A DNA stretch of 58,025 nt from NCBI GenBank assembly GCA_013151055.1, contig JAADIZ010000110.1:1-58025 (forward strand), written 5' to 3'. Shown here one piece after another: positions 14,913 through 17,813 of this stretch. Below the pieces are notes generated by a model that was not told the DNA's origin, did no database searches, and was given only the letters and a program-made list of their open reading frames with translations. The stretch comes from Campylobacterota bacterium. Lineage in GTDB: Bacteria; Campylobacterota; Campylobacteria; Campylobacterales; Sulfurospirillaceae. The position numbers were made by a program, and so were the translations under genes. Position 1 is the first letter of the stretch; every line of letters begins with the position of its first letter.

Positions 14913-15894
14913 TACCAAAGATTTTATAGAGCAATATAGTGAGTTTGATCTTATAATTGATGCAAGAAGTCCTAGTGAATATAAGCATTCAAAAATCCCA
15001 AATGCAGTGAATTTTTTTGCTTTAAGTGATAAAGAACACGAAGAAATTGGATTTATATATAAACAAAAATCAAAAAGTGAAGCAAAGGTAAAAGGTGCAA
15101 GCTATATATGCCTAAATGCAGCAAGACATATTTTTGAGCTAAATAAATTATGTAAAATTGGCTCAAAAATTGCGATTTACTGTGCAAGAGGAGGGTTAAG
15201 ATCAGGCTCTTTGGCGACAATATTTTCAAATATAGGTTACAGGGTGTATAAACTAGATTTTGGATACAAAGGTTTTAGAAGTCATGTTGTGCATAATATT
15301 GAAAATTTTCCACATAAAAATTTTATAGTTTTAGGCGGAAATACGGGGTGTGGCAAAAGCGAACTAATACAAAAACTTCCAAATTCTATAGATTTAGAAG
15401 CACTAGCAAACCACCTAGGCTCTACATTTGGCTCTGTTAAAGGCGAGCAACCTTCTCAAAAAGAGTTTCAAAATAAGCTGTTTTTTGAGCTTTTAAAGAT
15501 GAATACAAGTAAACCTATCTTTATAGAAGGAGAGAGTAAAAGGATAGGAAAGATAATTCTTCCTGATTTGTTGTATAAAAGAATGGGCGAGGGCAAAAGA
15601 GTCGAGGTAACAGCGCCAATAGAACAAAGAGTGCAAAGAATCTTAGATGACTATATAGACATAGATGATGAATTTTTTTATTATTGCATGGATAAAATCA
15701 CACCTTATATAAAAAAAACTGCAAAAGAAGAGATAATTCTAGAATATAAAAATAGAAACTTAGCAAAAGTTTCTGAAATTTTACTGCTTGATTACTATGA
15801 CCATGTGTATAAAAAACCAAAAAAAGTGGATTCTTCAATCTCAAATAAAGATGAAAATAAAGCACTAAAGGCTTTGATGGATTTAGTGGTTTAA
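14896..15894 (+). CDS. selU: tRNA 2-selenouridine synthase
   Basis: Rhodanese domain DARSPSEY...YCARGGLRS, P-loop GNTGCGKS, DLEALANHLGSTFG, EGESKRIG. Confidence 0.92.
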   Translation: MLEIINTKDFIEQYSEFDLIIDARSPSEYKHSKIPNAVNFFALSDKEHEEIGFIYKQKSKSEAKVKGASYICLNAARHIFELNKLCKIGSKIAIYCARGGLRSGSLATIFSNIGYRVYKLDFGYKGFRSHVVHNIENFPHKNFIVLGGNTGCGKSELIQKLPNSIDLEALANHLGSTFGSVKGEQPSQKEFQNKLFFELLKMNTSKPIFIEGESKRIGKIILPDLLYKRMGEGKRVEVTAPIEQRVQRILDDYIDIDDEFFYYCMDKITPYIKKTAKEEIILEYKNRNLAKVSEILLLDYYDHVYKKPKKVDSSISNKDENKALKALMDLVV

Positions 15895-16791
15895 GGCTTC
15901 TTTCACAGCATTTATATAACTTTTGAGTGATAAATTTGAATTTTTATATGCTTTATCAAATGCAGTTCCGTGATCAACAGAAGTTCTAACGATACTATCA
16001 TTTAGGGTGACATTTATACTTTCATCAAAATAAAGTGCTTTTAGTGGTATCAACCCTTGATCATGATACATACAAACAAAATACTTAAATTCTTTTCTGT
16101 TCTCTTTACTAAAAGCAGTGTCTGGTACAAGTGGACCTTGAAAAATATCTCGTTTTATCGATTTATTTGCTTTTTTTATAGCTTTTTGTATATCTTTATC
16201 TTCGCTTCCTATAACACCATCATCGCCTGCATGTGGATTCAATCCTAGAACGGCAATTTTATCAGAGTCTATATATTTAGAAATATCAATTAAAAATTTT
16301 GATAATTTTTTCGTGCTTATTTGAGAGCTAACATCTTTGAGTGGTATATGATGAGTAAAAAGTATGACGAACATGTCTTTACAACCTAACATCATAGTTG
16401 TTTCACAACCAAGCAAATCACTAAGAGCGTCTGTGTGACCTTTGTAGTTAATTCCAGCCATTGCCCAAGAGGATTTGTTTATTGGTAGAGTTACTATTGC
16501 TGATACTTTTTTACTTTTTGCAAGAGCAACGGCAGTGATAAATGAATCAAAAGAGGATTCGCCAGCTTCTTTGGTGTTTTCACCTGGTTTTATATCAAAA
16601 ACTTCGCCACATTCTTGAATCTTGAATTCTTTTGGTATATCAATGCCTAGCATGGCACTTCCCCACTCAAGTATAAGTCTGTTTATGCAATAAATTGGCT
16701 TGCAAATTTTGGAAATCTTTTTATGAGCCTTTAATGCAATTTCAAGCCCGATACCATTTAAATCGCCTATGCTAATAGCTATTTTTTTCAT
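15883..16791 (-). CDS. pdxA: 4-hydroxythreonine-4-phosphate dehydrogenase
   Basis: GDLNGIGLE, GHTD, LNPHAGD, YHDQGLIPLK, RTSVDHGTAFD. Confidence 0.95.
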   Translation of the reverse strand: MKKIAISIGDLNGIGLEIALKAHKKISKICKPIYCINRLILEWGSAMLGIDIPKEFKIQECGEVFDIKPGENTKEAGESSFDSFITAVALAKSKKVSAIVTLPINKSSWAMAGINYKGHTDALSDLLGCETTMMLGCKDMFVILFTHHIPLKDVSSQISTKKLSKFLIDISKYIDSDKIAVLGLNPHAGDDGVIGSEDKDIQKAIKKANKSIKRDIFQGPLVPDTAFSKENRKEFKYFVCMYHDQGLIPLKALYFDESINVTLNDSIVRTSVDHGTAFDKAYKNSNLSLKSYINAVKEALNH

Positions 16792-17037
16792 TTTATTGTC
16801 CCCTTTGTTAGGAGCAAAGCTCCTGACAAATTCCTCGCGACTAAAGCTTTGGCTTTGCCAAGAAGAAACTTATTTTATTGTCATCTTGTTTAAGAGCAAA
16901 GCTCTCAAACAATTCACACTCTACTGAAGCACGAAGTAGTAACTTCTGCAGTTTTATATTATTGTCCCCTTTTTACGGAAGTAAATTCCGCAAAAATTCC
17001 TCGCGACTGTTGCTTTGGCTTTGGCGAAAAGTTTCAT
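16788..17037. repeat. Array of three ~82-bp hairpin-containing cassettes between pdxJ and pdxA
   Basis: Boundary motif T(C/T)AT(T/A)TTATTGTC at 16788, 16870, 16954 and an 11/13 match at 17034; 27-nt hairpins at 16804-16830, 16886-16912, 16970-16996; units 1 and 3 align without gaps. Confidence 0.85.
16954..17037 (-). CDS. Possible 27-aa peptide MKLFAKAKATVARNFCGIYFRKKGTII spanning one repeat cassette
   Basis: ATG overlaps the pdxJ TGA (ATGA); frame ends at the TAA in the next boundary motif; may be non-coding. Confidence 0.25.
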   Translation of the reverse strand: MKLFAKAKATVARNFCGIYFRKKGTII

Positions 17038-17813
17038 TGTATTATCTCAAGCATTTCTCGCACCGCATTTTCAAAACCAGTAAAAACAGATCTTGCTATT
17101 ATACATTGACCGATATTGAGTTCTATGATGCCATTTATCTTACATATTTCTTTTACATTTTGATAATTTAATCCATGTCCAGCGGCTACTTTTAAGCCTA
17201 ACGAATTTGCATAAGCAGTATTGTCTATCAGTTCTTTTAATGATAATTGAAGTAATTTTTTTAATTTACTTCTTGGAAGTTCTAGCTCTTTTATGCTGTG
17301 TTTAGTAAATCCTAAATTAGAAAATAACATAGCATAGATATTTGAATACAAACCAGTATGCAGTTCTATCCAATCAACTCCGATATCTTTTGATAATTTG
17401 ATAACTTTCGGATTAGGGTCTATAAATAAAGATACTTCTATTCCATTTGTTTGCAACTCTTTTGTGACATCTTTTAAAGCTTCAAAATTTTTCGACACAT
17501 CAAGCCCACCTTCTGTCGTTACTTCCTCTCTTTTTTCGGGAACAATTGTAACACGATGGGGTTTTAATTCTAAAACTTTTTTTATGATTTTCTCATCTAT
17601 GGCACACTCAAGATTAATGGGCAATTGAGAATTTTCTATAATTCTTTTTGCATCATAATCATTTATATGTCTTCTGTCTTCCCTTAGATGTATAGTAATT
17701 TGATCAGCTCTAGCTCTTTTGACAATTGGTACAGCATCTAGCGGATCTGGGTCATTAATTTTTCTAGCTTCTCTTAAGACTGCGATATGATCAATATTTA
17801 CTCCAAGTAACAT
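17034..17813 (-). CDS. pdxJ: Pyridoxine 5'-phosphate synthase
   Basis: LGVNIDHIAVLREAR, HLREDRRHI, VPEKREEVTTEGGLD, AGHGLNY. Confidence 0.97.
   Translation of the reverse strand: MLLGVNIDHIAVLREARKINDPDPLDAVPIVKRARADQITIHLREDRRHINDYDAKRIIENSQLPINLECAIDEKIIKKVLELKPHRVTIVPEKREEVTTEGGLDVSKNFEALKDVTKELQTNGIEVSLFIDPNPKVIKLSKDIGVDWIELHTGLYSNIYAMLFSNLGFTKHSIKELELPRSKLKKLLQLSLKELIDNTAYANSLGLKVAAGHGLNYQNVKEICKINGIIELNIGQCIIARSVFTGFENAVREMLEIIQ

Follow-up and report, generated by a model that had tools for sequence, protein, structure and literature searches.

A two-hairpin repeat family, apparently undescribed and probably mobile, at start codons of Campylobacterales genomes

The junction between pdxJ and pdxA in a 58,025-nucleotide stretch of a Campylobacterota bacterium (Sulfurospirillaceae; GenBank assembly GCA_013151055.1, contig JAADIZ010000110.1, positions 1 to 58,025; hereafter the window) carries three consecutive units of a short repeat, typically built of two hairpins and a tail with a Shine-Dalgarno (SD) motif, a spacer and an ATG. 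We regard this repeat as probably a mobile, start-seeking and self-repairing non-coding element. It forms an apparently undescribed family of a known functional kind, which includes the mycobacterial interspersed repetitive units (MIRU), the Neisseria REP2 repeats and the Borrelia IR repeats. MIRU reportedly go back to Supply et al., 1997. No description of the present family was found in the literature searched, most subscription papers lying outside the coverage of that search. An earlier interpretation of the window from its letters alone (the sequence-only reading) had proposed a new mobile element at this junction; the family does appear new, but the functional kind is already known.

The repeat is dispersed, as the sequence-only reading held. 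An iterated profile search returned 125 copies in the 2.13-Mb genome (32% GC) and none in a locally shuffled version of it, and the copies stand in 65 arrays (25 single, 24 double, 12 triple and 4 quadruple), whose spread across the genome rules out a local decayed tandem duplication. The genes flanking them are unrelated housekeeping genes, according to a Pfam scan (E 1e-8) of 106 of the 118 flanking open reading frames (ORFs; 19 without a hit, and 12 spurious or antisense frames set aside). Among the candidates scored, the model matches 49 of 61 genomes of the family and 42 of 151 of the order, and none of the 60 and 53 genomes in the two largest families of the phylum sample, so that the distribution is patchy across free-living Campylobacterales. 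Named carriers, from a contig scan with a strict pattern (five loci returned), are Sulfurimonas sp. CS5 and Sulfurovum sp. CS9, both cultured, and Ca. Sulfurovum kebritense; assignments to Campylobacterales families beyond these are presumed. Viral contigs gave 10 hits to a short pattern, none with the second hairpin, and none to a fuller pattern; no blastn match of the unit was found in plasmids or phages, and Rfam gave no family match for the array, its sole hit (E 9.5, by chance) lying outside it.

Orthologous sites are found both empty and filled. At the pdxJ-pdxA junction, five of 11 congeners (G004, G007, G008, G012, G013; G, C and L numbers are our handles for genomes, contigs and loci) have a bare ATGA overlap, and six (G000, G001, G003, G005, G009, G010) have one to three units of differing sequence, just as an ancestral ATGA overlap with a changing number of inserted units had been supposed. 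Among the matches listed, 47 of 74 arrays of relatives fall at junctions syntenic in this genome, 29 of them empty and 18 filled here, some sites having been entered more than once in the count. The tRNA-Arg/Leu spacer is full in five, partial in two and empty in four of 11 congeners. In another family, G090 holds about 30 near-identical units of 129-131 nt, with an extra 5' hairpin, joined after the ATG at unrelated genes; the two sites tested are empty in five of five congeners each, and this lineage-specific burst is new-site insertion. The serial insertion proposed earlier is thereby upheld as regards new sites, through the burst, the syntenic sites empty in relatives and the variable tRNA spacer, but the arrays are not purely serial: since P2, the second hairpin, is identical in 14 of 54 within-array pairs vs 61 of 4797 between-array pairs, local duplication also contributes. 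Furthermore, five 67-68-nt cores recur unchanged at unlinked loci, and a tail-like GACA-N4-5-start precedes 15 of 45 arrays with an upstream SD and start, vs 12 of 1582 other starts. Some units have also been retained for long at orthologous sites, in helix P12 of RNase P RNA and, in genus g3, at a gene that we take to be argF (the labels mnmA and cmoA are likewise presumed). The one DNA sequencing run contained a fraction of 0.12 of the words, with joints probably from other organisms, and so carries no weight on excision.

Read on the gene-sense strand, a unit of about 80 nt (80-140 nt) comprises a small hairpin P1, a linker, a joining segment J, the hairpin P2 and the SD-spacer-ATG tail, in this order. 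P1 varies in sequence among units, and P1 and P2 types are combined in all pairings. The linker follows GC-WWYA-GT, as GCTTTAGT in 166 and GCTTCAGT in 75 of the 262 distinct units drawn from this genome and the fetched relatives; J ends in GAA in 258 of these units, P2 measures 27 nt in 233, and the tail is G-R-N-R-A-C-A, then 4-5 mostly A/T bases, then ATG. Across at least 10 families the GAA-TT/AA-G frame is invariant, the length of the P2 stem fixed and the linker conserved. The stem covariation claimed from the window alone is borne out on a larger scale, with 215 two-sided changes in 76 units of this genome, where shuffles gave 69 and slid controls no more than 87. In those units pairing holds for 93.8% of the modelled cells, a percentage inflated by their pre-selection for pairing. 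The gene-sense (minus) strand is the one that folds preferentially, because G-U outnumbers A-C by 115 to 32 there in 186 distinct stems. Inner units of G090 (L401, L411, L418) depart from this plan in a third hairpin, which ends in GGGGACCCC and is inserted within the linker loop.

Positions J-4 and tail+2 also covary (G-G 171, T-A 81, G-A 8, T-G 2 in the 262 distinct units), both main states being seen on at least three sequence backgrounds. Units with G-G carry the SD (SD-on) and take 47 of 59 last array positions, and units with T-A lack it (SD-off) and take 29 of 40 inner ones. The SD, at tail positions 1-5, is predicted to be largely unpaired (mean 0.73). Covariation between a 5' pyrimidine tract and J is weak (p 0.06 and 0.02), and consensus scans gave no sign of an internal promoter (one weak site vs 1.1 expected; TATAAT in 0 of 271 units).

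The target is a loose DNA motif, an A/T-rich stretch plus an ATG, and is neither a gene overlap nor pdxJ. For 42 of 47 SD-class last units the end coincides precisely with the start of a long ORF, and at gene starts units are oriented with transcription, two antisense copies in tRNA operons being the exceptions. Full units are also present in helix P12 of RNase P RNA in 13 of 48 readable genes of the family (P12 of this genome is a short form), directly before the mature 16S rRNA start in G043 and G137 (2 of 31 leaders, in two families, one of the two recognised by eye), and, antisense, behind tRNA CCA ends. An origin from the 16S leader is unlikely at such a frequency. The targeting of ATGA junctions suggested by the sequence-only reading is thus right for pdxJ-pdxA, but the family as a whole is not tied to such overlaps. 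The same applies to the duplication of ATGA across the insertion: ATGA stands on both sides at pdxJ-pdxA, but at another site the flanks read ATGA vs ATGG, no such pair exists at the tRNA site, and there is no fixed target duplication. Because the RNase P, 16S and tRNA copies all end at RTG, and the empty tRNA spacer is already tail-like over about 11 nt, the apparent duplication is best explained by a crossover inside a short stretch common to tail and target.

A second hairpin family, with arms CTGCCCATA...TATGGGCAG, replaces P12 in five of 48 RNase P genes (L305, L308, L310, L315, L302) and P2 inside some units (L004, L005, L114), its 9-mer having 12 copies in this genome; P12 forms of intermediate length (L278, L285, L286, L296, L311) may be reduced or rearranged unit remnants. 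An array of 13 tRNAs with spacers of 1-3 nt (G000 C50:2946-4364; C205) is unlike the host operons and possibly comes from a phage or island.

In family f1, a reading phase is kept from one unit to the next. Of 61 distinct cases in which a unit follows an old SD and NTG, the ORF opened there has its stop at -4 on the ATG of the following tail in 37, and somewhere within -4..+3 in 52, vs 21.0 and 34.2 expected with permuted 5' parts (p ~0.0002, overstated since copies are related) and 2-4 and 7-13 in shifted frames. These mini-ORFs span 26-29 codons per unit, use all three frames and encode differing peptides, so it is the phase that is kept and not the product. For 127 of 271 units there is no upstream start.

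In the window itself (Table 1), the four 13-nt motifs described earlier are confirmed at 16788, 16870, 16954 and 17034, spaced 82/84/80, as are the three 27-nt hairpins at 16804-16830, 16886-16912 and 16970-16996. Some amendments are needed. The motif at 17034 is present, but it is the native end of pdxJ, which resembles a repeat tail; the tail of unit 2 does differ, but it marks another subclass within the same family; and the single hairpin per unit reported earlier corresponds to P2, the smaller P1 having been missed. That the last unit supplies the SD and start of pdxA stands, as judged from the sequence. The dimer of units 2 and 1 is found again at other loci, there often with a single ORF of 54-56 codons that is broken in the window.

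Table 1. Coordinates of the array between pdxJ and pdxA (positions in the window).
Feature	Position	Strand	Remarks
pdxJ	17034..17813	-	Upstream gene; above NCBIfam cut-off; TGA overlaps old pdxA start (ATGA)
Mini-ORF, 27 codons (predicted)	16954..17037	-	From displaced ATG at pdxJ stop, through unit 3, to TAA on unit 3/2 junction
Unit 3 (transcribed first)	16954..17033	-	SD-on class; degenerate P1; tail ends in ATA, not ATG
Unit 3 parts	linker 17013-17006, J 17005-16997, P2 16996-16970, tail 16969-16954	-	
Unit 2	16870..16953	-	SD-off class (T at J-4, A at tail+2)
Unit 2 parts	P1 ~16950-16931, linker 16930-16923, J 16922-16913, P2 16912-16886, tail 16885-16870	-	
Unit 1 (transcribed last)	16788..16869	-	SD-on class
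Unit 1 parts	P1 16862-16847, linker 16847-16840, J 16839-16831, SD 16803-16799, pdxA ATG 16791-16789	-	
P2 hairpin of unit 1	16804..16830	-	12 bp + 3-nt loop
Shine-Dalgarno-like GGGGA of unit 1	16799..16803	-	Directly 3' of P2; predicted mostly unpaired
pdxA	15883..16791	-	Downstream gene; above NCBIfam cut-off; SD located in unit 1

Several described systems resemble the unit in part. MIRU are placed at start codons and contain an ORF that is coupled at -4 to the gene downstream (PMC12548453, PMC3184786), a coupling that the present family shows in f1 but mostly not in G090. The two are alike in being dispersed repeats of 40-100 bp at start codons, with empty and filled sites and a mobiliser yet to be found; the short direct repeat of filled MIRU sites has a counterpart at pdxJ-pdxA, an imperfect one (ATGA vs ATGG) at another site and none at the tRNA site. 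On the other hand, MIRU belong to another phylum and the likeness is one of description; the present unit carries its own SD, has two conserved hairpins with a stem of fixed length and no terminal inverted repeats (TIRs), bears an ORF in a subset alone and in any of three frames, and has also invaded RNase P RNA, 16S leaders and tRNA spacers. Neisseria REP2 and Borrelia IR-A/IR-B share the lack of TIRs, the two stem-loops and a 3' ribosome-binding site plus ATG directly upstream of genes (PMC3184786), but measure 120-180 nt instead of 80-140 nt; the present units, unlike them, gave no promoter signal, form head-to-tail arrays inside operons, and their downstream genes have no common function.

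Repetitive extragenic palindromes (REP) and their clusters (BIME), with RAYT/TIRYT enzymes, are similar in their small imperfect hairpins, clustering and lineage-specific high copy number (PMC3733652, PMC6006769); Y1 genes occur in the same genomes, and one tail class partly equals the GGGGWSAS TIR motif given there. In contrast, the units are always in direct orientation, form no REPtron and have a fixed end at RTG. The GTAG tag is at the hairpin foot in 0 of 271 units, GACA/GACG lying within 8 nt of the foot, and not at it, in 190 of 271; this comparison is by description, the Sulfurovum GTAG/CGTC consensus sequences (PMC3733652) standing outside it. The ends of IS200/IS605 elements and their non-autonomous derivatives likewise lack TIRs and target duplication and have subterminal imperfect hairpins and one active strand (PMC3201880); as in these, conserved purines flank the hairpin foot, and the TTTA/TTCA apex is common with local IS ends. 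In IS608, the two bases 3' of the hairpin foot engage the first two guide bases in triplets (PMC3201880). Applied to the present unit, the IS608 guide rule would call for a cleavage tetranucleotide that begins with CC or CA. The unit departs from IS608 in its 3' end, 14-15 nt from the hairpin foot and not 10 nt, and in a guide/cleavage-site pairing that fits one subclass; no autonomous IS200/IS605 element with the ends of the unit was found.

Two other classes were considered and rejected. A DDE-type miniature inverted-repeat transposable element is excluded because TIRs and a fixed target duplication are absent; as noted earlier for the window, the longest reverse-complement match between 5' and 3' ends does not exceed that of shuffled pairs (268 units). 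Integron attC cassettes do not fit either: GTTRRRY occurs in 54 of 271 tails, RYYYAAC in one and both in none, and an attC scan of the genome, which may be too strict, gave no sites at all.

As to how the repeat moves, we hold at slightly under an even chance that it is transferred as single-stranded DNA, in trans, by a host enzyme of HUH/Y1 type (TnpA/RAYT-like), the identity of the enzyme being the weak step. Such an enzyme would move the unit into A/T-rich-plus-ATG sites resembling its own tail, and integration within the short stretch shared by tail and target would leave the old SD and ATG upstream and a working SD and start downstream, giving an apparent duplication of ATG(A) with no true target duplication. 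The insertion would be tolerated through the tail, which restores initiation; in f1, by analogy with MIRU, the old start may drive the 26-29-codon ORF of each unit up to the new start, as a translational relay. Arrays would then grow by re-insertion at the regenerated site together with local duplication, P1 and P2 modules could be exchanged via the conserved linker, loss of a unit could leave its tail behind, and the SD-off subclass would serve inner positions and non-coding RNA sites. Consistent with such an enzyme, Y1 genes are present in 14 of 14 genomes of the genus and four of five other high-copy genomes; the linker has 11-13 nt and the TTTA/TTCA apex in common with the hairpins beside IS200/IS605 genes in the same genomes (a likeness with no chance control); and the covarying J-4/tail+2 pair stands where base triplets are formed in the right end of IS608. 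A bolder version, rather unlikely in our view, is a self-homing mini-element whose 3' tail is at once the donated ribosome-binding site and the guide to SD-ATG-like sites, a domesticated HUH enzyme reading the non-canonical G-G/T-A network at the foot of the fixed 27-nt P2. In that version a single base switch would turn the SD off and so open RNase P RNA, rRNA leader and tRNA operon sites to the module.

A number of results weigh against transfer by such an enzyme. None of the 106 flanking ORFs matched a mobile gene in Pfam, 0 of 47 Y1 loci (30 + 17) are flanked by the unit, and the flanks of 30 IS110/IS1111 loci gave no unit hit better than E 1.4, which also rejects shared ends with these elements; the recombinase gene flanked by the motif that the sequence-only reading anticipated was thus not found, whether Y1, IS110 or integrase. 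Near one Y1 locus a unit does occur, but it lies about 800 nt off, on the far side of a tRNA, and at an ordinary gene start. TIRYT-type Y1 genes co-occur weakly with the repeat (23 of 42 carriers vs 33 of 109 non-carriers, by hand count), and G153, with nine copies, has no Y1 match. The IS608 guide rule finds a suitably placed CA in the SD-off class alone, and the T*A partner is not a described triplet; applied by hand, with its fourth-position pair, the pairing of guide tetranucleotide and cleavage site fits the T-A class. The G-U excess fits RNA and single-stranded DNA alike, the p-values are overstated by the relatedness of copies, and the stems were pre-selected for pairing. Evidence on the origin of the 3' start codon is divided: the GTG of one internal junction indicates an element-borne start, whereas the tRNA site, where an ATG is present downstream and absent upstream, indicates a host-derived one. 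Nor is the relay general, -4 coupling being seen in three of 12 cases in G090 and one of two in G150; in the window it is broken, by the ATA at the unit 3/2 junction and the interrupted dimer ORF, and initiation of pdxA would then depend on the unit 1 SD. Half-elements enclosing a gene were not seen in this genome or the fetched loci, among the matches listed, the only such finds being hairpin inserts of 40-60 nt.

The mobile genes encountered deserve brief mention in their own right. TIRYT-type Y1 genes (L001:809-1576 on the minus strand, and L002; G000 C77, C91) have GGGGTCAG inverted repeats, a sequence present 17 times in the genome, and the C91 copy is split by a frameshift. IS110/IS1111-type elements (L330-L338, L342, L345, L346, L350) mostly end beside TGACCC or TGTCCCC, which suggests that they target TIRYT-type repeats. 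RAYT-like genes in G141 (L452) and G090 (L457, L462) are flanked by classical REP clusters whose loops read TTTA/TTCA, one of the families carrying the GTAG tag. In genus g3 the TIRYT match has one TAA inside the aligned stretch in six of six genomes (G015, G020, G023, G044, G048, G055), which may be a natural gene end or a shared break. The 3' part of an integron integrase lies at a contig start (L515, G000 C168:1-564; 260 bits vs a cut-off of 265), followed by a housekeeping gene, with no cassette array seen.

Spread might also need no dedicated enzyme, and none was found. Copies would then arise by microhomology recombination or template switching between the SD-ATG tail and native starts, an account that we consider possible though unlikely, as we do its addition of natural transformation, slippage and gene conversion, with selection on the mRNA keeping hairpins and phase. 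The tail-like character of empty sites and of array 5' flanks, the shared P2 within arrays and the free recombination of P1 and P2 types all speak for it; however, some 30 near-identical units with the same join after the ATG would be hard to obtain via 6-11 nt of homology without a catalyst, and the fixed 27-nt stem, the invariant GAA-TT/AA-G and the conserved linker suggest a binding protein. A further reading takes the unit as primarily an RNA element, a structured leader to which a host protein or the ribosome binds; it would insulate or tune initiation, mRNA processing or stability and would spread secondarily, owing to its usefulness. The gene-sense G-U bias, the unpaired SD beside P2, a G-G to T-A switch on at least three backgrounds, resembling a non-canonical internal loop, the sorting of SD-on and SD-off units to last and inner positions and the long retention at the presumed argF and in P12 would suit this explanation, but we find it clearly unlikely: the downstream genes have no common function, sites turn over between congeners, antisense copies sit in tRNA operons and the origin of new copies is left unexplained.

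Less likely still is another recombinase, either of the IS110 bridge-RNA type or a tyrosine enzyme such as an integron integrase, for which the tail would be the core site. An apparent short core is indeed common to tail and target, IS110 is present in 20 of 61 family genomes including this one, a partial integron integrase is present here, and IS900 reportedly, going by a title cited in PMC8141618, targets translation initiation signals. Against it, IS110 was not found in many high-copy genomes, including the complete G013, its flanks are unlike the unit, and the attC signature is absent.

How MIRU, REP2 and similar start-codon repeats move has been open since their description, according to two reviews. 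The present family makes mobilisation testable: it offers hundreds of copies, stems with clear compensatory changes, orthologous sites both empty and filled, bursts of recent date and carriers in culture. In the organisms that carry it, the translation-initiation region is rewritten at dozens of housekeeping genes per genome, units create ORFs of 26-84 codons, which would pass for genes in surveys of small proteins, and they account for much of how RNase P helix P12 varies in length within the family; copy number at single loci may serve strain typing. If the repeat does home on its own, through its tail and a domesticated enzyme, it would be the first start-codon-seeking repeat of the MIRU/REP2 kind whose mechanism of mobilisation is tractable, and would amount to a natural system for programmable insertion at any start codon, without polarity.

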